A stretch of 64,000 nucleotides of DNA from Candidatus Buchananbacteria bacterium (GTDB lineage Bacteria; Patescibacteriota; Patescibacteriia; CAIXNZ01): assembly GCA_014729025.1 (NCBI GenBank), contig WJKP01000011.1, positions 6,500 to 70,499 of the forward strand, given 5' to 3'. Within the stretch, counting starts at the first letter, position 1; each line of letters starts with the position of its first letter. Below are positions 16,436 through 37,412 of the stretch, piece by piece. Made by a program: the position numbers and the translations under genes. The notes under the pieces are model-generated. The model was not told the origin of the DNA. It worked only from the letters and a program-made list of their open reading frames with translations, and ran no database searches.

Positions 16436-16442
16436 TTTTAAT

Positions 16443-17243: not shown

Positions 17244-17255
17244 TAATAAAATTAT

Positions 17256-18646: not shown

Positions 18647-18650
18647 AATC

Positions 18651-18851
18651 ATGAGGATTATTAAGTTTAATAAAAAGATATACAGACCTGAAGCAATCAA
18701 ACAAGCGATTAATGATTTTAAAAATTTGGCCAATTTTAAATTAAAAGAAAACAGTGATTATATTGAAATAAAGATAAATAAAATAGATCAGGATTATAAA
18801 GATATTTTAAAAGATGAATTTGCCAATTATGCGCTTGGTTTAATGTCTTAA
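18651..18851 (+). CDS. Small protein, possible HxsD-like component of the His-Xaa-Ser system
   Basis: 66 aa, directly upstream of the SPASM rSAM. C-terminal 'ILKDEFANYALGL' loosely resembles the LLNDYxLRE signature I recall for the TIGRFAMs HxsD family. Weak. Confidence 0.35.
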   Translation: MRIIKFNKKIYRPEAIKQAINDFKNLANFKLKENSDYIEIKINKIDQDYKDILKDEFANYALGLMS

Positions 18852-18887
18852 CTTAAGTAATAAAGGGGTGAAGCAAATATTTAAGCT

Positions 18888-20372: not shown

Positions 20373-20386
20373 TAAAATATAAATAT

Positions 20387-20839: not shown

Positions 20840-20842
20840 TCT

Positions 20843-21808: not shown

Positions 21809-23304
21809 CACAAAAAATAAAAATTATTACATTGATCATAGTAATGATCATTTTAATTGTTGGCGGTTTATTATTATATTATTTTAAACCTGCTCCAAGT
21901 ATTAATCTGCCACCGCCAGTGGAAGAAGAAGAAAATTTGCAAACTAGATTGGAAAATGTCGTGGATTTTGGTTTTGTTAGTTCACCTTATACTTTGGATT
22001 CTATTTTAGAGTCAAGTGAATATCAGCAAATAAAACAAGAAGTTCATGATATTTGTTATGATGATAAAGGTAATTTGGGCTTGTATTTTTCTTGTTTAAG
22101 AGCTTTTGATACTTTTGCCGCCAATAAAATTAATAATCAATTACTTAATTTAAATCAGACGGATCAGCAGGATTTATTAACTAATTTGTATGAAATAGAT
22201 GAACGTTATGGGGTTCCAAGTCTGGATATTAGAACGCCTGAAATGATTTTTAGGACGCGAGAAGGTCAGGAATTAGTTAATTATTTTGAAGAAAACGCTA
22301 GTTTGGAGGATTTTAATTTTACCAATAATATTAATGAAATTTTTCAGCGCCAGTCTTTTAAAGAATGGTTAGATGATTTTCATGCTAAAAAACGTGAACT
22401 TTGTTATTTTCCTCCAGAAACTGATATTGCCAGAGATTGTGATTCTTTTACCACTCCTTATGCTAGTACTATTGTAATAAATTTTCTTTATCCGGAGAGA
22501 CAAGAAGAAGAAGTATTAAGTCTAGTTGGTGTTTTAGAACGAGGTATTTATAAAAGTGATGAAGATTTATTAGAAATATATAATAATTTATTGAGCCGTT
22601 ATTATAATGATTTTTTAGATAATTATGTTCAGGAAATGAAAAATAAATATCCGATTTTGGCTAGCGGACAAGTTACTGACTTGAATACTATTAATGATTT
22701 TCTCTTAGATCCTAACGATAGTTTAATTTATCAAGTCGGTAAATTATATTATTATGTGAATTATTTACATGTTGGTTCTAAAGGCAAGGTTAGGGATAAG
22801 CTCAACCAAAATTTAAATGATAAATTTGCAGAAGTAGCGGCTGATTTGGGTATTGACAATGACGATTTAAAGCAATATTTAATAGCAATTATTGGAGATG
22901 AAGAAGAAGTTATTGATCAATTAGTTAGTCAGTATAGAAACCTAAAAGTTAATTATCCAGCTAATGTTAATAAACTGGAAATCAATCCTACATTTATTTT
23001 TTGGGAAAGTATGGTCGAAGATCAGTATTATAATTATTTTACTGATGATTTTAATAATATTGATGCTTATTATGATGATTTGCGAACTTATAGATTGTAT
23101 ACTTATCTCTTGCTTTATTATAGCGATGACTATAAAAGTACTACTAATAGACAAGATGCTTTCGCTGAACGAGGTGAAGATGGCGGTCAAATGCAAAATG
23201 TATTTAAATTTAGCCGTTATATTGAAAGAGATGAATTGGATGAATTAATGAATTATTATAATAAAGAAAGAGGAACCATAATTGATTTGAGTGAAGGTCA
23301 TTAA
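21805..23304 (+). CDS. Membrane-anchored hypothetical protein
   Basis: N-terminal TM 'IITLIIVMIILIVGGLLLYYF', then a 470-aa soluble domain without recognisable motifs. Start overlaps the upstream stop (ATGA). Confidence 0.45.
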   Translation: MTQKIKIITLIIVMIILIVGGLLLYYFKPAPSINLPPPVEEEENLQTRLENVVDFGFVSSPYTLDSILESSEYQQIKQEVHDICYDDKGNLGLYFSCLRAFDTFAANKINNQLLNLNQTDQQDLLTNLYEIDERYGVPSLDIRTPEMIFRTREGQELVNYFEENASLEDFNFTNNINEIFQRQSFKEWLDDFHAKKRELCYFPPETDIARDCDSFTTPYASTIVINFLYPERQEEEVLSLVGVLERGIYKSDEDLLEIYNNLLSRYYNDFLDNYVQEMKNKYPILASGQVTDLNTINDFLLDPNDSLIYQVGKLYYYVNYLHVGSKGKVRDKLNQNLNDKFAEVAADLGIDNDDLKQYLIAIIGDEEEVIDQLVSQYRNLKVNYPANVNKLEINPTFIFWESMVEDQYYNYFTDDFNNIDAYYDDLRTYRLYTYLLLYYSDDYKSTTNRQDAFAERGEDGGQMQNVFKFSRYIERDELDELMNYYNKERGTIIDLSEGH

Positions 23305-23401
23305 AATTGATTAATTTCTAATATAAAAAACAGCCATAGATTATGGTTGTTTTTTATATTCAGATTGGGTATTATTATATATAGATTTGATTATTTTATT
23401 T

Positions 23402-24769
23402 ATGCCCCAAAATGAGAAAAAAATATTTAAGCAAAAATTTAAATTTTTAGATAAATATTTAGATTTATATAAAAAAGATTATTTGTCAGAATTTAAACTG
23501 GCCAAGGATTTTGTTTTTGAAAGGCTTAATCGCCGTAAAGAATGTACTTTTGATTATCCCCCTTATGTTTATTATAAAGAGGCAATAGATAAAGATCGTA
23601 ATCCTGATAACTTGTTTGACTTATGGCCGGATAAAACACCTTTTGTTATGTGTTTTTATTTTCCTTTCTGCACAAATAAATGCAGTTATTGTACTTTTAC
23701 AAATTTAAAGAAAAATATTGTCTCAGAATTTTCTGATTATTTGAAATATTATAAAAAAGAACTTTTGATGTATAAAGATTTGATTAAAAGAAATAAAATA
23801 AGCCATATTTATATTGGGGGTGGAACCCCGACTTTAATGACCGAGGAGCAATTAGAAGATTTATTAAAATTTATAAAAAAACATTTTTTACCTTATTTGC
23901 TTAAGCCTTTAGACGAGATAGAGTTTACCTGTGAAGCTTCTCCCCCGACTTTAACCGATAAAAAAATTAAAATATTAAAAAAATACGGTGTTAATACCAT
24001 TACTTTAGGTGTTCAGACACTAGATCCTAAGGTTTTAAAAACAATCGGCCGTTATCAGACAAAAGAACAGGTTATAAATGTTTTGCCTAAAATAATCAAG
24101 CTTTTTAAAGTCAATGTTGATATAATTGCCGGTTTACCAGCTAGTAATTTGCAGATTTTCGCTCAGGATTTAAATACGATAGTAAAATTAAAACCGCAGC
24201 ATTTAGGAGTTTATTTATTGACTTTATATGATCATTCTAAATTAGGTCAGTCTGATTATTATGTGCCACGTAAAGATTATCTGCAATATTATGATTTAGC
24301 TTATAAAACTTTATCAAAACAAGGTTATATTCATAGTACTTTTGAAGAATATTCATTGGATCATAAATATCGTTTAATGTATTTAGAAGATTTTCTGGAA
24401 AATAATCTGCATTTAACTACTGGTTTGGGTGACTCTGGTTTTACCGGAACTCATTGGTATAATAATACTGATGATATGGGTAAATATAAAAATTATATTA
24501 AAAATGGATTATTACCAATAGACAAGAAATATAAAATGACGATTGCGGATTTGCAAGTTAAATTTATTATTTATGGTCTTAGAAAATTAAATTTAAATAA
24601 AAAAGAATACCTTAAAATGTTTAATGAACCGATTGAAAAAAGATATTCTTTAGAAATAAACGCTTTAACTGATTTGGGTTTTTTGAAGCACGAGGGTAAT
24701 AAAATAGATTTAACCTATGAAGGCAAAAGAGATTTTGAGTTGATTATGCAGTTTTTTATGAGACTTTAG
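23402..24769 (+). CDS. HemN/HemW-like radical SAM protein
   Basis: 'FPFCTNKCSYCTF' CxxxCxxC. HemN-family 'IYIGGGTPTLM' (GGGTP) motif. C-terminal HemN_C-like region. Confidence 0.75.
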   Translation: MPQNEKKIFKQKFKFLDKYLDLYKKDYLSEFKLAKDFVFERLNRRKECTFDYPPYVYYKEAIDKDRNPDNLFDLWPDKTPFVMCFYFPFCTNKCSYCTFTNLKKNIVSEFSDYLKYYKKELLMYKDLIKRNKISHIYIGGGTPTLMTEEQLEDLLKFIKKHFLPYLLKPLDEIEFTCEASPPTLTDKKIKILKKYGVNTITLGVQTLDPKVLKTIGRYQTKEQVINVLPKIIKLFKVNVDIIAGLPASNLQIFAQDLNTIVKLKPQHLGVYLLTLYDHSKLGQSDYYVPRKDYLQYYDLAYKTLSKQGYIHSTFEEYSLDHKYRLMYLEDFLENNLHLTTGLGDSGFTGTHWYNNTDDMGKYKNYIKNGLLPIDKKYKMTIADLQVKFIIYGLRKLNLNKKEYLKMFNEPIEKRYSLEINALTDLGFLKHEGNKIDLTYEGKRDFELIMQFFMRL

Positions 24770-25553
24770 GCTCTAGTAAAAGCGAGTTATTAATAATTTT
24801 ATTGAAACGATTTTTTTCTATTTGTCGCGTTGATTTATAGGTTTGAAAATTCCCCTTATAAAATGAAGTATAATATTTATTTGTGAATTGCAATGGCTGA
24901 TTTTGTGGGTTTAGGCAATAATTGGGGCAATTTTTAATTATTTTTAAATAATTATTAGCTTGTTTGATTAAAGCTAGTGGACAAGTTCTACTTAAAGAAA
25001 AAATAATATAAGGTGTGTAAAGATTAATTTTAAGATTTTTAAGATTATCTAAAGCGATTCCTTGGCCCAGATTTTCAAGTTCAATTGTATCAATTTCATT
25101 TTTCAGTAACCAATCAGCAAATAAAGGATTATTAATTACATTATAAGTGCAAATTTTATCAAATTTAGTTTTAAAATGAGCATAATATGGATCTTTTTTT
25201 TGATTAGCAATAAAGATGCCGGCAATTAGTTTAATATTTTTATTTTTCAAATAATCCCACCCCCCCCAATCATTAAAAACTAATTCAAAAATATTTTCAG
25301 CTTGATTATTTTTTATGATTTTAATTATTTTATCTAAGTATTCAAAATAATTATTAGGTAATAAAGGCGTAAGTAAGGTTAGTCTTTTTTTATTTTTTTG
25401 GGATTTTTTTAAATATGATTGAAAAATTTCAGGTTGAGGTAATAAAAATGGGCAAGTATTTGAACCAATATAAAAATTATCATATTTCGGTAAATAAGTA
25501 TCAAATTGTTGAGGTGTTAAAATTTGAATAGCTTGGTTAGTCTTTTGGAGCAT
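24756..25553 (-). CDS. U32-family-like protein (possible UbiV/partner-type subunit)
   Basis: 265 aa. Overlaps the next U32 gene by 17 nt. N-terminal 'FYIGSNTCPF' resembles the start of the second U32 module in UbiU/UbiV-type pairs. Weak. Confidence 0.4.
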   Translation of the reverse strand: MLQKTNQAIQILTPQQFDTYLPKYDNFYIGSNTCPFLLPQPEIFQSYLKKSQKNKKRLTLLTPLLPNNYFEYLDKIIKIIKNNQAENIFELVFNDWGGWDYLKNKNIKLIAGIFIANQKKDPYYAHFKTKFDKICTYNVINNPLFADWLLKNEIDTIELENLGQGIALDNLKNLKINLYTPYIIFSLSRTCPLALIKQANNYLKIIKNCPNYCLNPQNQPLQFTNKYYTSFYKGNFQTYKSTRQIEKNRFNKIINNSLLLEPKVS

Positions 25554-26466
25554 AAGGGCAAATATGACAATAGTTTTTTTTAAAAATTATTTGATGTAAT
25601 AATTTAGCTTTTTTTTGAAATTGTAAATGATTAGGATAATTTTGAGCAATATTTTGAGCTTGCTTGATAAATAAAACCATCAGTCCTTTATCCCTGGCTG
25701 ATCTGTCACGGCCAACTATTTTTCCGCTAACAATATTTTTTTGTTCTTTAAAAAGTGATAAAAAACAGGCTCGGCATAGTGTTTTCTGACGAATAATTGT
25801 TTGGAAATTTTTTTCTAATTTTTTATCAATTGAAGTATAAAGCGGTTCTCTTTCACAAACAAATTCAATTCCGTCTGGTTTCATGAAATGGATTGATGAA
25901 CACAACCCATCAATATTAGAACAATTATCATCATAAATAAAAACTTCGAATTCAATTTGAGGCAGATTTTTAGCTAAATTACTAATCTCATTAATTGTCA
26001 GGTTGCGGGGAAGTATAATTCGGTTAATTTTAAAATTCTTACACCAAAATTGCGCTGATTTAGTATTTATAACTTGATCAAGCGAACTTAAATGAATGGG
26101 TAGACTTTTAGTTAATTTTCTTATAAGTTTAATAATAATAGGATCTTTGGCTATAATCGCGTCAGGCTTAATTTCTATGATTTTTTTTAGCTCATTATTT
26201 ATTTGATGTGTACCAGAAAAAATAGTATCAGTATTAAAAACAACATTAACTTTTTTATTATTTTTGCGAGCGGAATTAATGACTTGTTTGGCTTCTAAAA
26301 AAGAAGTAGTATTAGCCAAAATATTGTCCCGACGATTTAAATGGTTGTAAAATTGATTTTTTTTATGCCAATCTTGAGAAAAAATTCCCATATAAAATTC
26401 ATCTGCTCCGTTTTTTATTAAAGCAGGTAATTCAGTATAGCGTGAAATTGGGGCTAAGATTTTCAT
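25537..26466 (-). CDS. Peptidase U32 family protein (Fe-S RlhA/TrhP/UbiU-like)
   Basis: N-terminal 'MKILAPISRYTELPALIKNGADEFYMGIF' matches the U32 signature (M-x-LLAPAG-x-E-x-L-x-A-x-GADAVY-GG). Several downstream Cys could ligate a 4Fe-4S cluster. Confidence 0.65.
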   Translation of the reverse strand: MKILAPISRYTELPALIKNGADEFYMGIFSQDWHKKNQFYNHLNRRDNILANTTSFLEAKQVINSARKNNKKVNVVFNTDTIFSGTHQINNELKKIIEIKPDAIIAKDPIIIKLIRKLTKSLPIHLSSLDQVINTKSAQFWCKNFKINRIILPRNLTINEISNLAKNLPQIEFEVFIYDDNCSNIDGLCSSIHFMKPDGIEFVCEREPLYTSIDKKLEKNFQTIIRQKTLCRACFLSLFKEQKNIVSGKIVGRDRSARDKGLMVLFIKQAQNIAQNYPNHLQFQKKAKLLHQIIFKKNYCHICPYAPKD

Positions 26467-26524
26467 AAAATTTATAAGTTTATTATAATTAAATTACTTT
26501 ACTAAGGCAAATAAATTAATCATA

Positions 26525-27862
26525 ATGGTTAAAAATAATTTATTAATTAAGGAAAAAATAGCTAGTAAACCGAAGTATTGGCTTAGGTTGAGTTATGCTT
26601 GTAATAATAATTGTTTGTTTTGTTTAGATAAAGAGGCACAAAGTAATAATGAGCAATTTGTTTCAGAAAAAGATTTGCAATCAGAAATAAAGCAAGCTTT
26701 AAAAGAAGGATATCGGAAAATTATTTTAAGTGGAGGTGAACCAACAATTCATCCTCGTTTTTTGCATCTTGTGAAATTTTGTCAAAATTTAGGTTTTGAA
26801 AGAATTCAAATTATTACTAATGGCAGAATGTTAGCTTATCGTAAATTTGCCAGACAAACCTTGATAAGCGGGGTCAATGAAGTGACTTTTTCTTTGCATG
26901 GACTTGATGCACAAACCCACGATTATTTAGTCGGAGTTGAAGGAGCTTATGATCAATTAATTCAGGGGTTACATAATATTCGAGCGTCTAATTGCATTAT
27001 AAATATTGATATTGTACTTAATAAAAAAAATATTAAGCAGGTTCATGAGATTATTGATTTTTTTTCTAAAAATTATAGTATTTATGAATATGATCTTTTA
27101 CATTTAATACCTTTTGGTAATGCTTTTAAAAATTTATCAAATTTGGTTTTATCATATAAAGATTATCAGCAAAAAAGCTGGCAGAAAGTTTTGACTTTGG
27201 CAAAGAATGATAAGAGATATTTTATTTGGACTAACCGCTTGCCAGCCCAATATTTAGAAGACCATGAAGCTTTAATCCAAGACCCCCATAAATTATCGGA
27301 TGAATTAAAGGGGCGAAGGCATATGTTTGAAAATTATTTGCAAAATAACAAAGAGCTTGCTTGTAAAGATGGTCAACGTTGTGCTTTTTGTTTTTTGCAT
27401 GATTTTTGTTTGAAGTTATCTCAGTTTAAGGAGAATATTAATTATAAACCTAAATATAATATTAAATTTTTAACTCAAAAAAATTTAAATGAATTAAATT
27501 CTAATAATTTAATTGTAGCAATTAAAAATTTTGAGTTTTTGGAAAAGTTAAAAGACCAAACAGTTAATCTGGATGAGTTCAAGAATAAGACTAAAAACGG
27601 AAATTTAAAATTTATTAATTTACCTTATTGTCTAGCTGGCCAGAATAATCAAGTTGTTTATGATTTTTTGATTTATTTGCCAAAAGTTTTGAATAACAAA
27701 AAACAGATTGATTTGCATAAATTTGCCAAAATGTATATTAGCAATTTATATTATTTGAAATCAGTGAGGTGTGATGATTGTAAATACAATAATCAATGCG
27801 CTGGTTGGCATATTAATTATTTAAGATATTATGGTTTTAAAATTTTAAAACCAGTTAAATAG
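26525..27862 (+). CDS. Radical SAM protein, tandem paralog 1, with C-terminal Cx2Cx5C twitch-like motif and extra Cys-rich insert
   Basis: 'LRLSYACNNNCLFCLD'. 'LSGGEPTIHP'. 'ITNGRML'. C-terminal 'LPYCLAG...CDDCKYNNQCAGWHINYLRYYGF'. Confidence 0.8.
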   Translation: MVKNNLLIKEKIASKPKYWLRLSYACNNNCLFCLDKEAQSNNEQFVSEKDLQSEIKQALKEGYRKIILSGGEPTIHPRFLHLVKFCQNLGFERIQIITNGRMLAYRKFARQTLISGVNEVTFSLHGLDAQTHDYLVGVEGAYDQLIQGLHNIRASNCIINIDIVLNKKNIKQVHEIIDFFSKNYSIYEYDLLHLIPFGNAFKNLSNLVLSYKDYQQKSWQKVLTLAKNDKRYFIWTNRLPAQYLEDHEALIQDPHKLSDELKGRRHMFENYLQNNKELACKDGQRCAFCFLHDFCLKLSQFKENINYKPKYNIKFLTQKNLNELNSNNLIVAIKNFEFLEKLKDQTVNLDEFKNKTKNGNLKFINLPYCLAGQNNQVVYDFLIYLPKVLNNKKQIDLHKFAKMYISNLYYLKSVRCDDCKYNNQCAGWHINYLRYYGFKILKPVK

Positions 27863-27863
27863 T

Positions 27864-28751
27864 ATGAAAGAAAAAAGACTGGAAATTTTCATAACTTTTA
27901 AGTGTAATAACGATTGTCTTTTTTGCGTGGAAAAAACAAATAAGGATAAATATAAGGGTAAACAAATTTTTAGGGATAAACAGCATATTGAAGAAGAATT
28001 GAATAAATATCGCAAGCAAGGTTACACTTATTTGAATTTATTAGGCGGGGAACCTTTTTTAGCGAAAGATTTTTCGACTATTTTGCAGACCTCCAAATCC
28101 TTGGGTTTTGTTGTGGCCTTAGCGACAAATGCCAGTGTCTTATCTTCAGAAAAAATAGCCGAACAATATTTGCCATATATTGATGAATTAATTGTTTCAA
28201 TTCATGGCCATAATAAATTATTAATTAATCAGATTAGTCAAAATCCTAATTTGTATGATAAGTTAATTAAAGGTTTGAATAATATTAAAAAATATTTTAA
28301 AGGCCGGTTATTAAAAGCAAATTGCGTGATTAATAATTTAAATCATAAATATTTACTTGATATTTTAAAATTTATAAATAAATTCAATATAAAAGAAGTT
28401 AATTTAACTTATATGGATATTGATAAATATTGCCAAAATTATGTTGTTAAGATGGAAGATTTGCGTCCTTTGATTAAACCTTTGGTTGATTATAGTGAAC
28501 AACAAAATATGGTTTTGCGTTTTTCTGAATTACCATATTGTGTTTTAGGCGATTATTATTATCTGGCTAATGATTTGTATTTTCAAAATCGGGATAAGTA
28601 TTTTGTTGATGGCAAAAAAGACAAGGTTTATTTTTGGAAAAAATATAAAGGCAAAGTTTGTCAGGATTGCAATGTTACGGATATTTGTAAGGGGCTAAAC
28701 AAGGATTATTATAAACTTTATGGTGATAAAGAATTAATTGCTTTTCAATAA
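27864..28751 (+). CDS. Radical SAM protein, tandem paralog 2
   Basis: 'ITFKCNNDCLFCVEK'. 'LLGGEPFL'. C-terminal 'LPYCVLG...CQDCNVTDICKGLNKDYYKLYG'. Confidence 0.8.
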   Translation: MKEKRLEIFITFKCNNDCLFCVEKTNKDKYKGKQIFRDKQHIEEELNKYRKQGYTYLNLLGGEPFLAKDFSTILQTSKSLGFVVALATNASVLSSEKIAEQYLPYIDELIVSIHGHNKLLINQISQNPNLYDKLIKGLNNIKKYFKGRLLKANCVINNLNHKYLLDILKFINKFNIKEVNLTYMDIDKYCQNYVVKMEDLRPLIKPLVDYSEQQNMVLRFSELPYCVLGDYYYLANDLYFQNRDKYFVDGKKDKVYFWKKYKGKVCQDCNVTDICKGLNKDYYKLYGDKELIAFQ

Positions 28752-29700
28752 TATGAAAAATTTGGAAATAAATATTGGCAAGGCTTGTAATAATAAATGT
28801 AAATTTTGCATGAGTATAAATTCTATTCCTGAATTTTTGCGTTTTGCTGATTTTGCAGATTTAAAAAATGATTTAATTAAATACAAAAAACAAGGTTATG
28901 ATTCTTTGGGTTTTTTGGGCGGGGAAGTCACTTTGTACCCCAAATTAGTTGATTTGGTTAATTTAGCTAAAGAATTAGGATTTAAAGAAATTCATTTGAT
29001 TACTAATGGTCGGAATTTAAAAGACATGGCTTATACGCAGTCCTTGGTTGAAAATGGTATAACTCGTTTTTCTTTATCAATTCATAGTCATTGCGCCCAT
29101 GTAGAAGATGACTTGACTCAAGTTCCTGGTGGTTTTAAGGAAAAAATTCAAGGCCTTAAAAATTTATTAGAATTATCTAATCAAGGAATAATAAAAAAAG
29201 AGATTTGTTTGAATTTGGTTGTTAATAAAAAAAATTATCAAGATTTGGTAAAAACATTCAGTTTTTTTAGCAAATTAGGTGTTAAAAATTTTCGTTTTAA
29301 TTTTATGTGGCCCAGAGGTAATGCAAGTCAATATTTCAAAGAACTTTTGCTTTCTTATAAAGATTTTTTGCCTTATTTAAAGAAATTAATAAATTTAGCC
29401 AAAGTTTTAAGAGTACATTTAGTTTTTGAGGGATTGCCATTTTGTATTTTAAAAGATTTTGATCAAAAAGAAATTAAAAATTATATCGGTGAATTATTGG
29501 ATTTTAAAACTGATGTTTCTGATTTTAATTTTGATAAAAAAGAACGTTATGCTTTTAATTGGCAAGAACGCAAGAAAAACGAATTAAAAGAAAAAAGAGC
29601 AGAATGTGAGAAATGTTTTTATAATTCCATTTGTGAAGGTGTTTGGAAAGAATATATAAAATTTTATGGTTGGGAAGAATTTCAGCCAGTTATTAAATAA
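28738..29700 (+). CDS. Radical SAM protein, tandem paralog 3
   Basis: 'NIGKACNNKCKFCMS'. 'FLGGEVTLYP'. 'ITNGRNL'. C-terminal 'LPFCILKDF...CEKCFYNSICEGVWKEYIKFYGW'. Alternative start at 28753 (MKNLEI). Confidence 0.8.
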   Translation: MLFNNMKNLEINIGKACNNKCKFCMSINSIPEFLRFADFADLKNDLIKYKKQGYDSLGFLGGEVTLYPKLVDLVNLAKELGFKEIHLITNGRNLKDMAYTQSLVENGITRFSLSIHSHCAHVEDDLTQVPGGFKEKIQGLKNLLELSNQGIIKKEICLNLVVNKKNYQDLVKTFSFFSKLGVKNFRFNFMWPRGNASQYFKELLLSYKDFLPYLKKLINLAKVLRVHLVFEGLPFCILKDFDQKEIKNYIGELLDFKTDVSDFNFDKKERYAFNWQERKKNELKEKRAECEKCFYNSICEGVWKEYIKFYGWEEFQPVIK

Positions 29701-29702
29701 TT

Positions 29703-30632
29703 ATGGCAAATTTAGGTTATATTCAATTAAATAGAGTTTGTAATCAAGCCTGTCTTTTTTGTTCCAATCCTGATACTGGGGCAAGCTTAAATTTTATTGA
29801 ATTTAAGGATAAGGTTGCAGATTTGATTAAAAGAAATTATGATGGAGTTATTTTAACCGGCGGCGAGCCGACCTTGATAGATTATTTGCCAGAAGCAATT
29901 AAATTTTGCACTGAGAAGAAAATTAATTCTCGTTTAATTACTAATGGGCAAAATACAGCTAATTTTGAATATTTGAAAAAGTTAAAAGATTCTGGTTTGA
30001 ATCTGATGCATGTTTCTTTATATTCTTATAAAACTAAAATTCAAAATTATTTAAGTCAAAATAATGATTCTTATAATAATATTATTAAGACTTTAAAAAA
30101 TGCAACTAAATTAAATATCGTAATTAATATTAATACTGTAATTAATAAGTATAATGCTGATCATTTGGATAAAACCGTTTTTTTTATAATAAGAAATTTT
30201 CCGCAAATAAAGCATTTTGTTTTTAATAATCTTGACCCATATATGAATCGAGCTTCGCAGAATAAACATACCATACCAGGTTTATTTGATTTTGAAATAT
30301 CATTAAATAAAGCAATGCAAATATTATTTAAAAATAATAAAACTTTTCGGGTAGAACGAGTACCTTTATGTTATATGGGCGATTTTCCGCAGTTTAGCAC
30401 TGAAACAAGAAAAATTATTAAACAAGAAGAAAGAGTTGTTCATTTTTTGGATGAAAAGGGTCTGATTAGGCAGGATACCGATTCATTTAAATATAAAAAA
30501 GGTAAAGTTTGTAAAAGATGTAATTTAAATGATATTTGTGCCGGCTTATATTCTTTAGGTGAATATTTTGCGGAAAAAGAATTAAAGCCTGTCAAGAATG
30601 TTACTAAAGAACAAGTTAAAGCAAAATTATGA
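29703..30632 (+). CDS. Radical SAM protein, tandem paralog 4
   Basis: 'QLNRVCNQACLFCSN'. 'LTGGEPTL'. 'ITNGQN'. C-terminal 'VPLCYMGDF...CKRCNLNDICAGLYSLGEYF'. Confidence 0.8.
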   Translation: MANLGYIQLNRVCNQACLFCSNPDTGASLNFIEFKDKVADLIKRNYDGVILTGGEPTLIDYLPEAIKFCTEKKINSRLITNGQNTANFEYLKKLKDSGLNLMHVSLYSYKTKIQNYLSQNNDSYNNIIKTLKNATKLNIVININTVINKYNADHLDKTVFFIIRNFPQIKHFVFNNLDPYMNRASQNKHTIPGLFDFEISLNKAMQILFKNNKTFRVERVPLCYMGDFPQFSTETRKIIKQEERVVHFLDEKGLIRQDTDSFKYKKGKVCKRCNLNDICAGLYSLGEYFAEKELKPVKNVTKEQVKAKL

Positions 30633-31309
30633 ATATTGATTTATTAACAAAATGCGAATGTAATTGTGTTTTTTGTGATAAGCAGACTGTTAAGGGTGTT
30701 GAATCTATTAATGAACTAAAAGATATTTTGGAGGATTTTAATGAGTCAATAATTTTTTTAGGTGGACAAGAACCATTTAATTTTAAGGATTTAGATTTAT
30801 TAATTGCTTTTTTAAAAAATAAAGCGCCTGATAGCAAAATAATAATAAAATCTTCAGGTTGTTTTGATTATAAAAAATTGCCCCGGGTTTTATTTGAAAA
30901 AATCGAGATAATAGAATTGCCATTATATTCTTGCTCAAGTGAAATACACAATAAAATAATGGGGAATAATCAGGCTTGGGAACTGCTTTTTGCTTTTGTT
31001 GATTTTTTAAAAGAAAATAATTTACAGAATAAAATTTTGTTTCATACAATGGTTTTAAAGGATAATTTTAAAGAATTATTTGCTATTTATGATTTTGTTT
31101 TAGACAATTTACCTGATCAGCAGTATTTTAAGATTATTTACCCCTTGAAAAATATAAGTAAAATAGAATATGAAAAAATTATTGTACCGCAAGATTTAGT
31201 TATTAAGCAGCTATTTGCTGATTTCCCAGAAGATATATTGCAAAATAAAATTGAATTAATAAATTTCCAACCTTCTAAAGAACAAATTAAATTTAGAAAT
31301 GTTTTATAA
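30629..31309 (+). CDS. Small radical SAM-like protein (mini-rSAM, 226 aa)
   Basis: 'LTKCECNCVFCDK' contains CxxxCxxC. 'FLGGQEPF'. No C-terminal auxiliary Cys motif. Confidence 0.6.
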   Translation: MNIDLLTKCECNCVFCDKQTVKGVESINELKDILEDFNESIIFLGGQEPFNFKDLDLLIAFLKNKAPDSKIIIKSSGCFDYKKLPRVLFEKIEIIELPLYSCSSEIHNKIMGNNQAWELLFAFVDFLKENNLQNKILFHTMVLKDNFKELFAIYDFVLDNLPDQQYFKIIYPLKNISKIEYEKIIVPQDLVIKQLFADFPEDILQNKIELINFQPSKEQIKFRNVL

Positions 31310-31314
31310 ATTTT

Positions 31315-33105
31315 ATGAGTCGTGTTGATATAAAAATAGGTTTTGCTTGCAATAATATGTGCCAATTTTGTGTGCAAGGAGATAAAAGGTTTAAATTTAA
31401 AAACCGTACGCTTAATGAAATAAAAAAAGCGTTAAAAACAGCTAACGCGCAAGGCAGTCAGGGGGTTGTTTTTACTGGTGGTGAACCAACATTACATGAC
31501 AATATTTTAGAGGCAGTTAAGTATGCTAATGATTTAGGTTTTCAATCAATTCAGTTGCAAACTAATGGTCGGATGCTGGCTTATTTTGGTTTTTGTCAAA
31601 AATTAATAAAAGCCGGTATAAATGAATTTTCACCAGCCTTGCATGCTTCAATACCCCAAATTCATGATGAATTAACCAGTAGTCCTGGCGCTTGGGAACA
31701 AGTTGTACAGGGTATTAAAAATTTAAAATTATTAAATCAGTTTGTTTTAACAAATACTGTGATAACCAGCAAGAATTATAAAGATTTACCTGCTTTAGCC
31801 AAGTTATTTATTGATTTGGGCGTGGATCAATTCCAGTTTGCTTTTGTTCATATTTTGGGCAGCGCAGCTCAGCATAAAGACTGGCTGGTGCCTCAAAAAT
31901 CAGAGATTATGCCTTACGTAAAAAAGGGGTTAGATGTTGGCATTAAAGCAAACAAGAGGGTTATGACAGAAGCAATTCCGTATTGCTTAATGACTGGTTA
32001 TGAGGATTACATTGCAGAAAAGATAATGCCTGAAACACAAGTTGTTGATGCTGAAGGCGTGATCGCCAGTTATGCTAAATATCGGCATACAGAAGGTAAG
32101 GTTAAGAGCAAAGAATGTGAGACATGCAAATATTTTAAAATTTGCGAAGGTCCGTGGAAAGAATATCCGGAAATTTACGGTTGGAATGAATTTATACCAA
32201 TAAAGAAATTATCAATAAATAAAAAAAAACAAATAAATAATAATTTTAAAAAAAATAAAAATGATATAGCCTTTTTTAATTTTGTTGGTAAATTTAATTT
32301 AATTGATTTTAAGGAGTATTTGCCAAATTTAATCTCATTTAAAATAATAAAAAATGAAAAAAATAGTTATTGCGTATTATTAAAAAATGGCGATGATGAT
32401 GTTTTTTTAAAAACTTATCGATGGCAAGGGAATAAATTTTATAATTTTGTTAAAATTTATAATTCTTTATCAAAAGAAATCAATTTGCCACAGATAATCT
32501 CTATATCTGATTTTGTCGTGCCAGAAACAAATGAAAAAATTTTCCTTGTATTAACTGACTACCTGAAAGATTTGGTTAATAATAAAGATAAATTTAAAGA
32601 AGCAAATCTTAAATTAATAATTGATCAGGTCGTAAGATTGCATCAAATTGATAATGTTATTATTAAAAATAATATGTTTAATAATAAATTTTTTTTAGAT
32701 CAAATGATTATAAAAAATAATCCCATTGATATTAATAAAATCATTTATTATTTAAAAGATAAGCTTGATAAAATTTCAGCCCAGGGTTTGTGTCATTTTG
32801 TTTTAAAACCTGAACATTTTATTTTTAATAAAAATAAAGTATACATGATTGATCTTGATAATATAAGTTATGATTATTTGATATTCGATTTAGCTGCTTT
32901 AATTGAAAGATTTTTATATAAAGATAAATATTCTTATACAAGAAAATATCTAAAAGATTTTGTAACATTATATTTTAAAAAAAATAAAAAAGTTAAATTT
33001 AATAAGAATGTATTGTATCAAGCCTGTAAGTTGATGGCTTATTATCAAAATGGTAGAGCTTTTCAGGATTTTGGACCGCTTGATGAATTTTTCAATGAAT
33101 TATAA
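31315..33105 (+). CDS. Radical SAM (paralog 5) fused to a C-terminal kinase-like (APH/WaaP-like phosphotransferase fold) domain
   Basis: N-terminal domain: 'IGFACNNMCQFCVQG', 'FTGGEPTLH', 'QTNGRML', 'IPYCLM...CETCKYFKICEGPWKEYPEIYGW'. C-terminal 300 aa: 'GLCHFVLKPEHFIF...VYMIDLDNISYDYLIFDLA', paralogous to 34627-35901. The catalytic-loop Asp is replaced (HFV instead of HFD). Confidence 0.75.
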   Translation: MSRVDIKIGFACNNMCQFCVQGDKRFKFKNRTLNEIKKALKTANAQGSQGVVFTGGEPTLHDNILEAVKYANDLGFQSIQLQTNGRMLAYFGFCQKLIKAGINEFSPALHASIPQIHDELTSSPGAWEQVVQGIKNLKLLNQFVLTNTVITSKNYKDLPALAKLFIDLGVDQFQFAFVHILGSAAQHKDWLVPQKSEIMPYVKKGLDVGIKANKRVMTEAIPYCLMTGYEDYIAEKIMPETQVVDAEGVIASYAKYRHTEGKVKSKECETCKYFKICEGPWKEYPEIYGWNEFIPIKKLSINKKKQINNNFKKNKNDIAFFNFVGKFNLIDFKEYLPNLISFKIIKNEKNSYCVLLKNGDDDVFLKTYRWQGNKFYNFVKIYNSLSKEINLPQIISISDFVVPETNEKIFLVLTDYLKDLVNNKDKFKEANLKLIIDQVVRLHQIDNVIIKNNMFNNKFFLDQMIIKNNPIDINKIIYYLKDKLDKISAQGLCHFVLKPEHFIFNKNKVYMIDLDNISYDYLIFDLAALIERFLYKDKYSYTRKYLKDFVTLYFKKNKKVKFNKNVLYQACKLMAYYQNGRAFQDFGPLDEFFNEL

Positions 33106-33111
33106 TTATAT

Positions 33112-34623
33112 ATGATTGATATATATTATAAAAAAGAACTTCAGAGTATTATTGCACCCATGCAGATAGGGCGCCAATATTTTAATTGGGATTTTAAGAA
33201 AATCATTTTAAATCGTATCGGCCCCTATTTTTTACAGGAAATAATTTTTTATTTTTTAAAAGATAATAATAATGCGTTAATGATATATTTGAGAAAAAAT
33301 AATGAATATTATCAATTGGATTACCAAGTTTTAAATGATGAATTATCAGCAAAAAAAATTTTTATTTTATTTGATAATTTATTAATAAAAAAACAAATTA
33401 TTCTTGAAAGAAGTTTAGTTTTTGCAGCCTTGCAAAACAATGAAAAAAATTTTTTAAATCGATTATCTCAAATTGATGAGAAAGAATTAATCAAATTATT
33501 ATCATTACCAGAGATTAAATTTATAAATAATAATGTAGAAGATAGTGATATTAAAATTTTATTTGATTTTAATTTAAATAGTTTTGGCCTTGGCGATTAT
33601 TTGATGAGCGATAGGAGTTTAATTAAAAATGGTTCAAATAATTTTATAATAACTGATTTGTATTCAGTTTTTGAGGGTAATAAAAATTTCAATGCTATTT
33701 ATTCGGATTTGAATTTATGTTTTTCTGAAAATGGGTTATTAGATAAGACCGTTGAACTTATTGATTATAACACCAAGCTTGATTATTTGGATGAAAATTT
33801 AAAAAATACTTATCATTTATTTTTATATAATCAATTTTATAAATTAATAAAAAATTCTTTAAAATTATTTAATTTTAAAGAATACCAGATGAATCCTCAA
33901 AAAGGGATTGATTTGTTATTATCAGAAATTAATAAAATAAAGAAAATAAATATACATTCCTTAGATTCCATGAATGATGAGAAAAATGAATTATATTTAA
34001 ATAATAAAGAATTTATAAAAATTATTGGTAAGCAAATTAAAAAAAATAAAAAAATCATTGGGATTAGCGCAAATTATGCCGAAGGTTTTCCTGATAATGC
34101 GCCTAAAGGCTGGGCCTTGGCTAATTGGTTGGAATTAATTAATTTATTAAGTCAAAAATTTAATGATTTGCATTTTTTTTTATTGCCAGTTAATAATGAA
34201 GATATTTTAAATATAGAAATATCTGAAAATAATTATCATTTTAAAATATTTAATAATTTAAAAGATAAAGTTGATTTGGTTTTTATTGATGAATTGATTA
34301 AAAAATATATTTTTAAAAAAAGCATATTTGATAATATTTTATTAAAAAATACAAGTTTAGAATTTTTAAAAACAGCAATAAGTTTTTGTGATTTGGTAAT
34401 AGCTTTGGATAGTGCTCCGGCTCATATGGCTGCTTCGCTAGAAGTGCCTGTTGTTTCTTTGTTTAGTGAAAAAGGCGATATTAGAAAATTCAAGCCATTG
34501 GGTGATAAATCTTTTACCTTGCATAAAGAAAAAGAAGGGGAATATTTAAATATTAATAATATTTCAGCTCAAGAAGTTTTTGATCTATTAATTAAAGAAA
34601 ATTTAATTATCAAACGAAAATAA
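33112..34623 (+). CDS. Glycosyltransferase family 9-like protein (heptosyltransferase / BAHT-type GT-B fold)
   Basis: C-terminal domain 'KIIGISANYAEGFPDNAPKGWALANWLELINLL...LVIALDSAPAHMAASLEVPVVSLFS' matches the GT9 donor-binding motif (D-S/T-G-P-M-H-L-A-A-A...P-V-V-A-L-F-G). The N-terminal 300 aa are divergent. Confidence 0.55.
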   Translation: MIDIYYKKELQSIIAPMQIGRQYFNWDFKKIILNRIGPYFLQEIIFYFLKDNNNALMIYLRKNNEYYQLDYQVLNDELSAKKIFILFDNLLIKKQIILERSLVFAALQNNEKNFLNRLSQIDEKELIKLLSLPEIKFINNNVEDSDIKILFDFNLNSFGLGDYLMSDRSLIKNGSNNFIITDLYSVFEGNKNFNAIYSDLNLCFSENGLLDKTVELIDYNTKLDYLDENLKNTYHLFLYNQFYKLIKNSLKLFNFKEYQMNPQKGIDLLLSEINKIKKINIHSLDSMNDEKNELYLNNKEFIKIIGKQIKKNKKIIGISANYAEGFPDNAPKGWALANWLELINLLSQKFNDLHFFLLPVNNEDILNIEISENNYHFKIFNNLKDKVDLVFIDELIKKYIFKKSIFDNILLKNTSLEFLKTAISFCDLVIALDSAPAHMAASLEVPVVSLFSEKGDIRKFKPLGDKSFTLHKEKEGEYLNINNISAQEVFDLLIKENLIIKRK

Positions 34624-34626
34624 TTT

Positions 34627-35901
34627 ATGGAAATTGGGATTAGAGATAAAAATGAAAACGATTTAGTCAAAAAAATTATTAATTATAATAAAATTAATAA
34701 TTTAGTAAAACCGATAAAAAGATATGAAATTACGGCGATTGATTTGGTTAATAAAAATTTATATTTAAAAATAAAAAATAACGAGACAGGTGATGTTTTG
34801 CGAATAGTTTTAACTACCAATAAGAGGAAAGATTTATTAAGTATAGATAATAAATTGTTTTTTTACTATTACTCAGATTATTTGAATAAATTTGATAATT
34901 TGCTTTGTAAAAATATAATGAAAATCATGTATAGTAATATTAATAATAATCGAGAATTATTTAATACTGCCATTGATTTAATAAAAAATGAAAATATTTT
35001 TGATAGAGATTTTGAATATTTTGAGGATGAAGATACCGGGCGTAAATTACAAGTAAATAAAAAAAATATAGCGAAATTAGAAAAAAATATTAATTTAAAT
35101 TTAATAAAAAACAAATGGCCCAATATGAATGTTGCTAATGAAATATTTAGTTATGATGAAACAAGACTTCGTTATAAATTAATTGATAAAAATAATCAAG
35201 CTTATTTTTTGAAAATTTTTACCGGTGCCAATAATGATATTGATAATTTAATAAAAATAAATAAATTATTAGCTGATAAAATAAATGTGCCGAAGGTTAT
35301 TGATTTTCAAAAAGATGATAAGTTTTATTGGGTATTATATGAATTTTTAGATCCCGCCAAGATTCTTGATAAACAAAAAATAAATTTAGCAGTTAAAGAA
35401 ATAGTAAAATTTCATAATGTTAAGTTTGATATGGGAAATCAACCAGAAGGTAGTAAATTTAATAAAGTTAAAAATAATTATTATTTATATAAAGAAGAAA
35501 TTATTGATAAGGATATTTTAGAAAAAGCATTAAATTATTTGCAGAATAATCTTGGCCCAAAAGGTTGGTGCCATTTTGATTTAGAAATGAGGCATTTTAT
35601 TTATTCTAATGATAAAATGTATTTAACTGATATTGATTCTATTAAATATGATTATATAGTTTTAGATCTCGGTTTATTTATTCGCTATTTACTTAAAAAA
35701 AATCAGTCGCATTTCATAGCGCCATTAATTGAATTATATTTAAAAAATAATAAGTCTTATAAATTTGATAAAAAAATATTATTTTATGCCACTATTATTA
35801 TGGTATATTATAAAGAGGATGAAAATTTAATTAGTAATCATAATTTACATAAAAATTTGAATCAAGAAATTAATTTAATTAGAAATTATTTTAATATTTA
35901 A
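34627..35901 (+). CDS. Kinase-like protein (APH/WaaP/Kdo-kinase-like phosphotransferase fold)
   Basis: 'GWCHFDLEMRHFIYSNDKMYLTDIDSIKYDYIVLDLG' gives H-x-D catalytic loop plus a DID metal-binding motif. Paralogous to the C-terminal domain of the rSAM fusion. Confidence 0.5.
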   Translation: MEIGIRDKNENDLVKKIINYNKINNLVKPIKRYEITAIDLVNKNLYLKIKNNETGDVLRIVLTTNKRKDLLSIDNKLFFYYYSDYLNKFDNLLCKNIMKIMYSNINNNRELFNTAIDLIKNENIFDRDFEYFEDEDTGRKLQVNKKNIAKLEKNINLNLIKNKWPNMNVANEIFSYDETRLRYKLIDKNNQAYFLKIFTGANNDIDNLIKINKLLADKINVPKVIDFQKDDKFYWVLYEFLDPAKILDKQKINLAVKEIVKFHNVKFDMGNQPEGSKFNKVKNNYYLYKEEIIDKDILEKALNYLQNNLGPKGWCHFDLEMRHFIYSNDKMYLTDIDSIKYDYIVLDLGLFIRYLLKKNQSHFIAPLIELYLKNNKSYKFDKKILFYATIIMVYYKEDENLISNHNLHKNLNQEINLIRNYFNI

Positions 35902-35903
35902 AT

Positions 35904-37412
35904 ATGATACAATTAATTATAAATTATTCTATTGTTTCGCTTATTATTATAATAGGTTTGATAGTTACCCTTACTGATTTTCGAGAAAGCAGAATAAAGA
36001 ATAAATATATTAAATTAGGGATTTATATAGGGTTAATTTATTATATTATATTATTTTTCATTACTGTTTTGTCGCGTTTTTATGCTTTATCTTATTATTT
36101 CCCCCCTCAATATTATTTATTTATTTTAATTAATACTTTAATTGGTTTTATTTTGGCTTTTATTTTGTGGAATCTTAAATTATGGGCCGGAGGCGATGCC
36201 AAGCTTTTTACCCTTTATGTTTTTTTAATACCTTTATTTTTTTATTCAGAAGCATATTTGCCATTTTTCCCAGCTATTAATTTATTAATAAATATAATAA
36301 TTCCTATTTTTATTTATTTATTAATTAAGATGTTAATTTATCCAATCAGCTTATTTATTAGTCATTTGAAAAATCCCAAATTGGTCAAGGAATATTTTAA
36401 AAAACATAGAGAACAAAATAAGTTTGATAAATCAAAAATAAAAGAATATCTAAATAGTGGTCTTAGTTTTTTATTAATTTTAATTTTTTTCCAATTATTA
36501 AGAAATAAAGTTAATGAATTTTTAGATCCTTATTTGGGTAATATGGTTTATGCCACTTATTTTTTTATGGGTTTTGTTATTTTTAAACCATTGAGAGTTT
36601 TTTTAAAAGAAAAAGTTTTGCTTGTTTTAATTGGTGTATCGGCTTATTTTATTATTAGTTACTTTTATTTTCATGAACAGGTTTTTGCAGAATTGCATAA
36701 AGTTTTTGCCTTGCAAATGATTTTTATGATGTCTTATTTTTATATTTTTAAATATGGCCGAGCTTTGGGACAATTTTTATATAATTCAGCAGAAGTTAAA
36801 ATGGTTCCGGTTGAAGAATTAAGTTCTGGCAATTATATTAATAAAGGTTACATAAGAAAAATAATGGGGAATAGGAATAATTTAGATAATTTCAAACAAG
36901 ATATTGAAAATGTTTTGTCAGAAGAAGAACATAATAACTTAGCCCAATTGATTGAGGAAAAGGTGGGGCAAACTGGTAATGAAAAAAAACAATATAAGAT
37001 AATTTCTGTTTTCAGGAATTTACGTCCAGAGAGTGCTTTTAAAATTGCAAAACAGATATTTGAATATAAAAAACAAAAAAAACAAAGAAAAGAATTACTG
37101 GAAACAGTAAAAATAAAATTAAATGATAAGCAGAATAAGACCTTAGATAATATTTTAAATAACAATGATGATATTGATAATTTTTTAAAAAAAATTAAGG
37201 GGAAATTAAGCGAAGAACAAGCTCTAAGATTAAAAAGCATGATTGAAGAAAGGAATAAAGAGGTTGAGGATCAGGGCTTAGAGCCGATTAAACATATTAT
37301 ACTTCATAAAACATTTTCTTTTGCGCCTTTTATGTTATTGGGCGTTATAATTACTTTATTAACCAAAAGTTCAATTATTCATTTGATTTATGAATATATT
37401 TTGCACCGTTAG
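35904..37412 (+). CDS. A24-family (prepilin peptidase/TadV-like) aspartic peptidase homolog with long C-terminal Lys/Glu-rich coiled-coil domain
   Basis: First catalytic-Asp motif 'LTDFRESRIKN' (cf. D-L-R-x-R-R-I-P-N). Second 'LWAGGDAKLFTLYVFLIPL' (cf. GGGDVKLL). About 8 TM helices in the first 290 aa, then a 200-aa charged cytoplasmic tail and a final TM helix. Confidence 0.6.
   Translation: MIQLIINYSIVSLIIIIGLIVTLTDFRESRIKNKYIKLGIYIGLIYYIILFFITVLSRFYALSYYFPPQYYLFILINTLIGFILAFILWNLKLWAGGDAKLFTLYVFLIPLFFYSEAYLPFFPAINLLINIIIPIFIYLLIKMLIYPISLFISHLKNPKLVKEYFKKHREQNKFDKSKIKEYLNSGLSFLLILIFFQLLRNKVNEFLDPYLGNMVYATYFFMGFVIFKPLRVFLKEKVLLVLIGVSAYFIISYFYFHEQVFAELHKVFALQMIFMMSYFYIFKYGRALGQFLYNSAEVKMVPVEELSSGNYINKGYIRKIMGNRNNLDNFKQDIENVLSEEEHNNLAQLIEEKVGQTGNEKKQYKIISVFRNLRPESAFKIAKQIFEYKKQKKQRKELLETVKIKLNDKQNKTLDNILNNNDDIDNFLKKIKGKLSEEQALRLKSMIEERNKEVEDQGLEPIKHIILHKTFSFAPFMLLGVIITLLTKSSIIHLIYEYILHR

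Follow-up and report, generated by a model that had tools for sequence, protein, structure and literature searches.

The 64,000-nucleotide stretch of Candidatus Buchananbacteria DNA analyzed here (assembly GCA_014729025.1, contig WJKP01000011.1; hereafter the window) carries a tandem array of six radical S-adenosylmethionine (radical SAM; rSAM) genes, named C1 to C6. The array genes are HxsC-like, that is, old and diverged relatives of the HxsC enzymes of His-Xaa-Ser (HXS) systems, and the locus around them is an expanded HXS system; a first-pass annotation of this DNA had described the array but missed both the family and the system. Our preferred reading, which we consider probable, is that the array supplies the HxsC-type enzymes of an expanded HXS maturation locus and serves the multi-step radical maturation of an HxsA-like protein. 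The array genes are as follows.

C1: 26525-27862, plus strand, HxsC-type rSAM protein, first gene of the array (open reading frame [ORF] and Pfam Radical_SAM, 72.4 bits)
C2: 27864-28751, plus strand, HxsC-type rSAM protein (Pfam Radical_SAM, 61.8 bits)
C3: 28753-29700, plus strand, HxsC-type rSAM protein, nearest to NCBIfam HxsC4
C4: 29703-30632, plus strand, HxsC-type rSAM protein (Pfam Radical_SAM, 75.6 bits)
C5, the "mini" gene: 30629-31309, plus strand, 226 amino acids (aa) (Pfam Radical_SAM, 39.6 bits)
C6: 31315-33105, plus strand, rSAM domain (approximately residues 1 to 300) followed by an APH-kinase-like domain (Pfam Radical_SAM, 79.3 bits)

The six genes abut one another on the plus strand (26525-33105), with intergenic gaps from C1 to C6 of 1, 1, and 2 nt, a 4-nt overlap, and 5 nt when C3 is started at ATG 28753. 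This start is the likely one because the corresponding public protein, P0001, has 315 aa; a TTG at 28738, 15 nt upstream, would make C3 overlap C2, and an exact look-up of C3 with the TTG start gave no match, the public protein beginning at the ATG. Three public proteins (P0001, P0051, P0054) are 100% identical to window ORFs. All six array proteins reach the gathering score of Pfam Radical_SAM (PF04055; 39.6 to 79.3 bits, cut-off 29.5) and keep the CxxxCxxC and GGE motifs. C1, C2, C3, C4, and C6 also end in a four-cysteine motif, PxC...Cx2Cx5CxG, which was not found in the 226-aa C5. Identity to C1 ranges from 23 to 31%, and the closest pair, C3 and C6, share 35%; these values leave no room for recent duplication or an assembly artifact such as collapse, and both were therefore rejected. 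The recent, identical duplicates of which the first-pass annotation had warned are thus not what the array contains, and its interpretation of the array was otherwise supported in part. The genes are true paralogs of a single rSAM subfamily, as it had held, and the C-terminal four-cysteine strings that it quoted are present in C1, C2, C3, C4, and C6. The tandem arrangement stands, but its count of five paralogs plus a mini gene becomes six HxsC-like genes, five of them full length plus the mini gene. The core motifs that it listed as shared are largely there, with slips in C3 (GGEV rather than GGEP), C2 (ATNA rather than TNG), and C4 (SLYS in place of the H motif), and stops and starts do abut or overlap, with ATG 28753 a likelier C3 start than its 28738. 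The window is AT-rich (21 to 39% G+C), and promoter and terminator scans of this DNA returned matches at chance level only.

For every paralog, the top NCBIfam match is HxsC (TIGR03977) or HxsC4 (NF038332), in all cases below the cut-offs. Scores against HxsC (cut-off 267.9 bits) are 127.9 for C1, 103.9 for C4, and 46.2 for C5, with C2 to C6 spanning 46 to 104 bits; scores against HxsC4 (cut-off 500 bits) are 179 for C3, 159.9 for C6, 113.5 for C1, 80.7 for C2 (also the best match of C2), and 71.6 for C4, and C3 matches this model along its whole length. The cysteine-rich tail is a family trait: in a collected set of 197 family sequences, Cx2Cx5C occurs in 188, with a glycine two residues past the last cysteine in 185 of these, and most exceptions look like truncated ORFs.

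The array tails match the Cx2Cx5C part of the SPASM model TIGR04085, and for this reason the enzymes are fairly described as lying in the SPASM/twitch neighborhood of the rSAM superfamily, each with one probable auxiliary cluster. The match is confined to C2, C3, and C6, scores 15.8 to 21.3 bits against a cut-off of 27, and covers model positions 23 to 72 of 93, which is the Cx2Cx5C segment alone. Pfam SPASM (PF13186) gave no match for the array proteins, the CX9-15GX4C motif of the first half of SPASM was not found in the array family, and the SPASM Cx3C cysteine is present in none of the 188 motif-bearing sequences. Full SPASM membership was rejected on the sub-threshold TIGR04085 scores, the lack of a Pfam SPASM match, and the missing Cx3C cysteine. 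The array also scores far below the cut-off of the twitch subfamily model NF033640 (N_Twi_rSAM, 170 bits). From the earlier label of a "twitch-type, partial-SPASM" enzyme with a single auxiliary cluster, the partial SPASM segment can be kept, and the shared, conserved four-cysteine site does look like one auxiliary cluster; the twitch assignment is imprecise, given the sub-threshold TIGR04085 scores, the absent Cx3C, and the distance from NF033640.

The neighborhood of the array is where the HXS system becomes apparent. Genes for HxsD, HxsB, and an HxsA-like (SHG)9 protein lie 6 to 8 kb upstream, in a locus of ~19 kb (~18170-37412) that runs hxsD, small ORF, hxsB, hxsA, five other genes, the six HxsC-like genes, and three more. 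All nine rSAM-family genes of the 64-kb window fall within it (C1 to C6 and those starting at 18888, 20843, and 23387). The first genes of the locus are these.

hxsD: 18170-18646, plus strand, NCBIfam TIGR03976 at 59.9 bits (cut-off 50)
Small ORF: 18651-18851, plus strand, 66 aa, between hxsD and hxsB, weakly HxsD-like (E = 3e-4 against an HxsD profile)
hxsB: 18888-20372, plus strand, SPASM-type rSAM maturase, NCBIfam TIGR03978 at 514.9 bits (cut-off 370)
HxsA-like precursor gene: 20387-20839, plus strand, encoding a leader, a hydrophobic stretch, a Cys/Asn/His-rich middle, and a C-terminal HCS + (HGS)9
CX4CX2C rSAM gene: 20843-21808, plus strand, without SPASM and like the N-terminal half of PapB/HxsB (Pfam Radical_SAM, 49.8 bits)

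The hxsB assignment agrees with the name HxsB given to the identical NCBI protein, P0054; the gene is 32 to 35% identical to annotated plasmid-borne hxsB genes, and a reverse search from HxsB found its closest homologs in CPR (candidate phyla radiation) genomes, annotated HxsB. HxsD scores 158 bits against a profile built from the HxsD-like proteins of related loci; Pfam HxsD gave no match at E < 0.01. The HxsA-like gene is the sole HxS-repeat ORF of the window and encodes ten consecutive HxS units; HxsA4 (NF038313) matches its repeats at 49.2 bits (cut-off 55), and HxsA3 matches its leader at 45.9 bits (cut-off 65). At least 10 loci belonging to several phyla (including L077, L010, L078, L038, L028, L076, L006, L014, and L050; L numbers denote related loci) have a homolog of the 66-aa ORF in the equivalent position. 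NCBIfam matches to the CX4CX2C rSAM gene are all sub-threshold, and its homologs directly follow hxsA in many loci.

A genome scan started from C3 (10-sequence alignment; one genome per GTDB species) yielded 66 loci containing relatives of the array genes (C-type genes). On the Patescibacteria side these come from Buchanan-, Falkow-, Parcu-, Moran-, Sacchari-, Peri-, and Gracilibacteria, and otherwise from Omnitrophota, Elusimicrobia, Cloacimonadota, many Myxococcota, Aenigmatarchaeota, Iainarchaeum, and Methanosarcinales. ORFs of the related loci, with 10-kb flanks, were classed with the window proteins as queries. In approximately 20 of the 66, hxsB, hxsD, and/or an (SHG)n hxsA lies within 10 kb of a C-type gene, and these hxs-linked loci come from CPR, Omnitrophota, Elusimicrobia, Myxococcota, Iainarchaeum, and Methanosarcinales. 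Across ~20 related loci the precursors share a leader, ..K(L/I)PK(L/V)KK..FL..EEG(K/R)I(S/T)KK, and they carry from 3 to ~58 SHG units, often ending in HGQW. A link between the array and the nine repeats of the precursor, which the first-pass annotation had proposed, is therefore plausible, with hxsD, hxsB, and the (SHG)9 gene 6 to 8 kb upstream and the linkage recurring in ~20 loci; the sugar moiety that it named as the alternative substrate is neither favored nor disfavored by these data. In L077, hxsD, a small ORF, hxsB, and hxsA are followed by C1, C4, C2, C3, and C6 types; in L076 (Gracilibacteria), hxsD, hxsB, and hxsA are followed by a run of rSAM genes; a recurring minimal form in Myxococcota consists of hxsD, hxsB, hxsA, a CX4CX2C-type rSAM gene, C2, and C3; and L078 is a variant with few C-type genes. 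Several of these loci (L003, L004, L005, L017, L048, L049, and L076, of Gracilibacteria, Peribacteria, and Patescibacteria type) use genetic code 25, judged by ORF coverage: long ORFs are nearly absent under code 11 and coverage is complete once TGA is read as sense, and the code had to be set by hand for these loci.

The same loci show that the array lineages are old. C1, C2, C3, C4, and C6 each have their own orthologs in CPR, DPANN archaea, Omnitrophota, Elusimicrobia, Methanosarcinales, or Myxococcota, which implies that the duplications are ancient and that the set was inherited as a set. In L008, the closest relative locus, the C1, C2, C3, C4, and C6 types score 478, 309, 444, 519, and 551 bits, and in Gracilibacteria C1 scores ~280, C4 ~295, and C6 315 to 386 bits. 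A neighbor-joining tree places each window paralog in a separate multiphylum clade, with canonical HxsC forming another; this is a quick distance tree without support values, and the reciprocal best-hit pattern is the stronger evidence. In situ expansion, as the array had first been interpreted, was rejected because the paralogs fall in separate clades, each with its own orthologs in other phyla. Array size does vary between related genomes, a comparison that the first-pass annotation had suggested: C-type genes number 2 or 3 in Myxococcota (C2 and C3, sometimes C4), 5 in L008, 6 in the window, and at least 7 in L077, L010, and Gracilibacteria, and runs of ~7 to 13 rSAM genes surround C3 homologs in other CPR genomes, including Gracilibacteria.

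The paralogs differ in ways that are themselves conserved. C1 carries a second four-cysteine motif, Cx4-6Cx2Cx5C (Cx5Cx2Cx5C in the window), in 18 of 18 aligned C1-type sequences, which makes the Cys-rich insert seen earlier in this protein real and suggests one more metal or cluster site; its orthologs (207 to 478 bits) occur in at least 17 loci and all have the extra motif. Orthologs of C2 are found in L008, L010, L011, and L077 (289 to 309 bits), and a Myxococcota clade of C2-type genes adjoins hxsA. C3 has 50 homologs in a protein search, invariant cysteines at positions 12, 16, 19, 231, 285, 288, and 294 across 30 orthologs, and an AlphaFold2 model with a pLDDT (predicted local distance difference test score) of 95.3. 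C4 orthologs score 190 to 519 bits in CPR, Omnitrophota, archaeal, and Myxococcota loci. C5 has only two homologs (80% and 49% identity, 223 to 225 aa) in a search of 5.8 billion proteins, a word-indexed search that very distant relatives could escape; it was not found in L008, and its radical SAM cysteines are invariant across the homologs. C5 is a young, lineage-restricted addition that has lost the C-terminal cysteine domain, and it is not an obvious pseudogene. The C-terminal domain of C6 matches Pfam APH at 19.6 bits, below the cut-off, and the neighboring APH gene at 62 to 65 bits; it is missing from the C6 orthologs in L008, L010, and L006. The APH-like domain of C6 (32215-33105) reads HFVL where the stand-alone APH-like protein (34627-35901) keeps HFDL; with HFVL in place of HFDL, the catalytic Asp seems to be missing from the fused domain, which may act as a pseudokinase or in binding.

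Several lineages also occur joined in one polypeptide. A profile search of 1.84 billion cluster representatives returned 3,135 proteins at E <= 1e-30, and many of the top matches are 600 to 1,400 aa long with two to five HxsC-type domain copies. Several of six such proteins (P0174-P0179) have the order C1-type, other C-type, C3-type; these are known as protein only, and stop-codon read-through by gene callers is possible for them. Three fusions can be read in DNA under the standard code: C1-type with a C-type domain (L013:7924-9993), C2-type with C1-type (L055:5862-7712), and CX4CX2C-type with a C-type domain (L001:4486-6318). Fusion in single polypeptides argues that the joined paralogs act together.

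How the array might work can be sketched from its relatives. In the four-gene system of Escherichia coli, HxsB, HxsC, and HxsD are each required for HxsA maturation, HxsC binds HxsD, a +8-Da change on HxsA was localized to the SHRSS motif of the final HxS repeat, and mature, periplasmic HxsA keeps phage DNA from entering (PMC13128918). We give moderate credence to a scheme in which the six HxsC-type enzymes carry out SAM-dependent hydrogen abstraction on the HxsA-like protein, with one auxiliary cluster each and an extra site in C1, and differ in the step or site that they serve; we infer hydrogen abstraction on this protein from homology and conserved linkage. Each enzyme would bind SAM on a [4Fe-4S] cluster held by CxxxCxxC and generate a 5′-deoxyadenosyl radical, which would take a hydrogen from a specific site of the HxsA-like protein, whether in the (SHG)9 tail or in the preceding Cys/Asn/His-rich region. 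The four C-terminal cysteines would hold one auxiliary [4Fe-4S] cluster for electron transfer or substrate positioning, and the paralogs would take different steps or different sites, working with HxsB, HxsD, the CX4CX2C rSAM, and a HemN-like rSAM also encoded in the locus. A glycosyltransferase of family GT9, a kinase, and an A24-like membrane peptidase, likewise encoded there, may then decorate, process, or export the product. That GT9 and the kinase glycosylate or phosphorylate many serines and that the A24-like peptidase removes the leader is speculation from gene content alone.

Several observations weigh against the preferred reading. None of the six proteins reaches the HxsC equivalog cut-off (TIGR03977, 267.9 bits) or the curated HxsC4 cut-off (500 bits; best, C3 at 179), and we infer from conservation only that the four C-terminal cysteines may be auxiliary-cluster ligands. 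All six lack the ~110-aa N-terminal extension of canonical HxsC, and because of this absence the array enzymes may recognize their substrate differently. Three Gracilibacteria arrays (L003-L005) have no HxS precursor within the 10-kb flanks, and no HxS-repeat or other repeat precursor was found at that distance in Gracilibacteria and other array loci searched. Finally, in ~12 Myxococcota loci the C3-like gene is solitary: no hxs gene lies within 10 kb of it and, beyond close relatives, no neighbor over the same distance is conserved. These solitary loci (L016, L023, L029, L031, L033, L035, L037, L041, L042, L045, L046, and L069) lie in GC-rich Myxococcota or "proteobacterial" metagenome-assembled genomes, and for several the taxon label, such as Enterobacterales, looks doubtful given the composition.

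Some of these points invite a different account, which we judge unlikely: that the array, together with the HemN-like rSAM, a pair of U32 genes, GT9, and the kinases, produces or modifies a small molecule (for example, a cofactor, a sugar nucleotide, or a lipid), the hxs genes being adjacent by accident or the HxsA-like protein serving as scaffold or carrier. The fold neighbors of the array do include sugar, nucleotide, and lipid enzymes, C3-like genes can stand alone in Myxococcota, one locus (L006) has NifD/K/H-like genes, and a tetrapyrrole product was proposed by Méheust et al. for rSAM-rich nitrogenase-paralog loci in the same phyla. However, the recurrent companions of the array in different phyla are hxsD, hxsB, and the gene for the (SHG)n protein, not sugar or cofactor genes; the kinases were found in this lineage alone and GT9 only here and in L008; no genes for cofactor precursor supply are visible in the locus; and HxsC, the nearest described family, is needed for protein maturation (PMC13128918).

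It is also rather improbable, in our estimation, that the paralogs perform one shared reaction, differing in the repeat or site handled or being partly redundant, instead of catalyzing successive distinct steps. A core and auxiliary motif common to all, a precursor with 10 near-identical HxS units, and a C-type gene number that varies between related loci would fit such a division of labor. Yet the clades are old (23 to 35% identical), C1 alone has an extra conserved four-cysteine motif, repeat number (3 to ~58) shows no obvious match to paralog number, and C1, C2, C3, C4, and C6 are kept together in distant phyla, sometimes fused and in fixed order; this retention as a set fits non-redundant roles.

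Highly improbable is a role as prokaryotic viperin-like (pVip) antiviral enzymes that, with kinases, make chain-terminating nucleotides: PADLOC pVip models (with and without kinases) match the paralogs at 28 to 82 bits, viperin is the top Foldseek match, and C6 has a fused kinase-like domain with a kinase gene nearby, but an identity as viperin or pVip was rejected because the PADLOC matches cover mostly the shared N-terminal rSAM core (ending at profile position 151 to 197 of 257 to 262), NCBIfam viperin_w_prok (NF038283) reaches at most 75.5 bits (C2; cut-off 180) and is outscored by HxsC or HxsC4 for every paralog, viperins have no C-terminal four-cysteine motif of the kind conserved in the array, the C6 kinase domain appears to lack the catalytic Asp, and the viral contigs scanned held no relatives of the array genes.

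We therefore retain the array as the HxsC-type part of an HXS maturation locus, and this reading can be carried further, though only as a possibility that we would not count as likely. One widespread "super-HXS" pathway may unite the CPR, DPANN, Omnitrophota, Elusimicrobia, and Myxococcota loci; in it, up to a dozen rSAM enzymes, sometimes as megaenzymes, would convert an (SHG)n protein into a heavily cross-linked or metal-binding surface polymer or a peptide-derived cofactor. Among CPR relatives the chromosomal neighborhood of the locus stays similar, which may be a sign that it has a function in lifestyle and is not a mobile antiphage module. The rSAM loci with nitrogenase paralogs described in 2020 could be versions of this pathway; if so, the substrate of a nitrogenase-like reductase would be derived from a peptide.

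The rest of the locus consists of the following genes.

499-aa protein: 21805-23304, plus strand, hydrophobic N terminus, no Pfam or NCBIfam match
HemN-like (class C) rSAM: 23387-24769, plus strand, Pfam Radical_SAM at 87.6 bits
U32 partner: 24756-25553, minus strand, no Pfam or NCBIfam match
Peptidase_U32 family protein (UbiU/TrhP-like): 25537-26466, minus strand, Pfam PF01136 at 101.4 bits (cut-off 22.4)
GT9 (heptosyltransferase-like): 33112-34623, plus strand, Pfam PF01075 at 41.2 bits (cut-off 22)
APH-family kinase-like protein: 34627-35901, plus strand, Pfam PF01636 at 37.4 bits (cut-off 23.2), with HFDL and DID motifs
Polytopic membrane protein of 502 aa with an N-terminal A24 (prepilin peptidase) domain: 35904-37412, plus strand, PF01478 at 28.2 bits (cut-off 26.5)

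The sole homolog found for the 499-aa protein is in L008. The HemN-like gene has an uncertain start (TTG 23387 or ATG 23402) and NCBIfam best matches (STM4012, HemZ, HemW, ChuW) that all fall below cut-off; genes of this type recur in L001-L005, L008, L011, and L076. The U32 pair is divergent from the array; matches of the Peptidase_U32 product to NCBIfam TrhP and UbiU are below cut-off, homologs of the partner adjoin the U32 gene in L008, L058, and L060, and U32 genes recur in L008, L058, L060, L076, and L005. Among U32 proteins, the UbiU/UbiV/TrhP type comprises oxygen-independent hydroxylases. A GT9 homolog also follows C6 in L008; enzymes of this family include protein O-heptosyltransferases that act on serines of repeat proteins, and the Ser-rich (SHG)9 tail is a conceivable target. 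No kinase homologs were found in the other loci examined. The A24-like gene closes the operon and is followed by cysS (read from translation). Its homologs lie near the ends of related loci (L011, 712 bits; L010, 490 bits; and L051, L014, L058, L057, L059, L061, L050, and L062) in CPR, Omnitrophota, Elusimicrobia, Iainarchaeum, and Methanosarcinales, and the protein may be a dedicated leader peptidase. HxsA-like leaders have the form ..EEG(R/K)I(T/S)KK followed by a hydrophobic stretch. Upstream, between dnaJ and hxsD (15262-18128), are four genes without a family match, one for a membrane protein and three for proteins with signal-peptide-like hydrophobic N termini, two of these Cys-rich C-terminally; their order is the same in L077 and is not kept in more distant loci. 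No nitrogenase-like gene is present in the window.

The HXS system, HxsC, and the rare "A4/C4" variants are already catalogued, and the window presents a very different form of HXS: ~19 kb and nine rSAM genes for one Ser-His-Gly repeat protein, in a CPR lineage whose genomes are known to be very small. At least seven bacterial and archaeal phyla retain this set of enzyme lineages, in some cases as fusions. Together these loci form a natural series, from the minimal Myxococcota form (HxsB and three more rSAM enzymes) to arrays of ten or more, that enzymologists could use to assign modifications to enzymes. The loci also raise the question of whether HXS-type products have roles beyond phage defense in uncultivated lineages. 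Our literature search found no paper on HxsA2-4, on HxsC4, or on rSAM arrays in CPR bacteria, and no account of HxsC-type arrays with several paralogs or of how these are distributed in CPR and DPANN lineages.

The four-gene hxsD-B-C-A system was reportedly defined in silico by Haft and Basu in 2011. That architecture is not what the window locus has, and the recurrent 66-aa ORF of the expanded locus lies outside the four-gene description. A published survey places >99.8% of HXS systems in the four-gene class and 99.7% in Pseudomonadota, and the first functional study, in 2026, established an antiphage system in E. coli (PMC13128918). We compared the window with two annotated, plasmid-borne canonical loci, from Aeromonas and Nostoc. 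Canonical HxsC (TIGR03977) has the same rSAM core and PxC...Cx2Cx5CxG tail as the array proteins, is the best or second-best NCBIfam match for most of them, and likewise shares its locus with hxsD, hxsB, and a gene for a protein with His-Xaa-Ser repeats. It differs in its ~110-aa N-terminal extension and in copy number and position, with one hxsC beside hxsB as opposed to six copies 6 kb away in the window. The window precursor has a different leader from canonical HxsA and no reported peptidoglycan-binding domain, and, unlike the plasmid-borne annotated loci, the window locus lies on the chromosome and shows synteny between CPR relatives.

HxsC4 (NF038332) and HxsA4 (NF038313) are curated models of a rare HXS variant and come nearest to parts of the window locus: HxsC4 is the best match for C3 and C6 (179 and 160 bits), and the (SHG)n tail of the precursor matches HxsA4. 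Precursors of related loci in Myxococcota score above the HxsA4 cut-off (79.2 versus 55 bits); no tested protein reaches the HxsC4 cut-off of 500, including a Myxococcota C3-type protein near a bona fide HxsA4 (129 bits). Neither model describes a multiparalog array. SPASM/twitch enzymes with solved structures (SkfB, anSME, SuiB, BlsE, MoaA, and GDGT-MAS) are more remote, at 16 to 20% identity to the array, and sequence matches to the PDB extend no further than profile position ~232, which leaves out most of the C-terminal domain.

The group VI nitrogenase-paralog loci of Méheust et al. (2020) offer a last parallel. The phyla named for them also carry C-type genes, and both kinds of loci contain large rSAM runs with HemN-like and B12-binding members. 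In L006, NifD-, NifK-, and NifH-like genes (L006:11805-15346) lie directly 3′ of HxsC-like genes and an hxsD-hxsB-hxsA set. L006, one of ~80 loci examined, recalls the published loci through this adjacency and is a candidate, and only a candidate, for group VI membership; the paper itself makes no mention of His-Xaa-Ser components.

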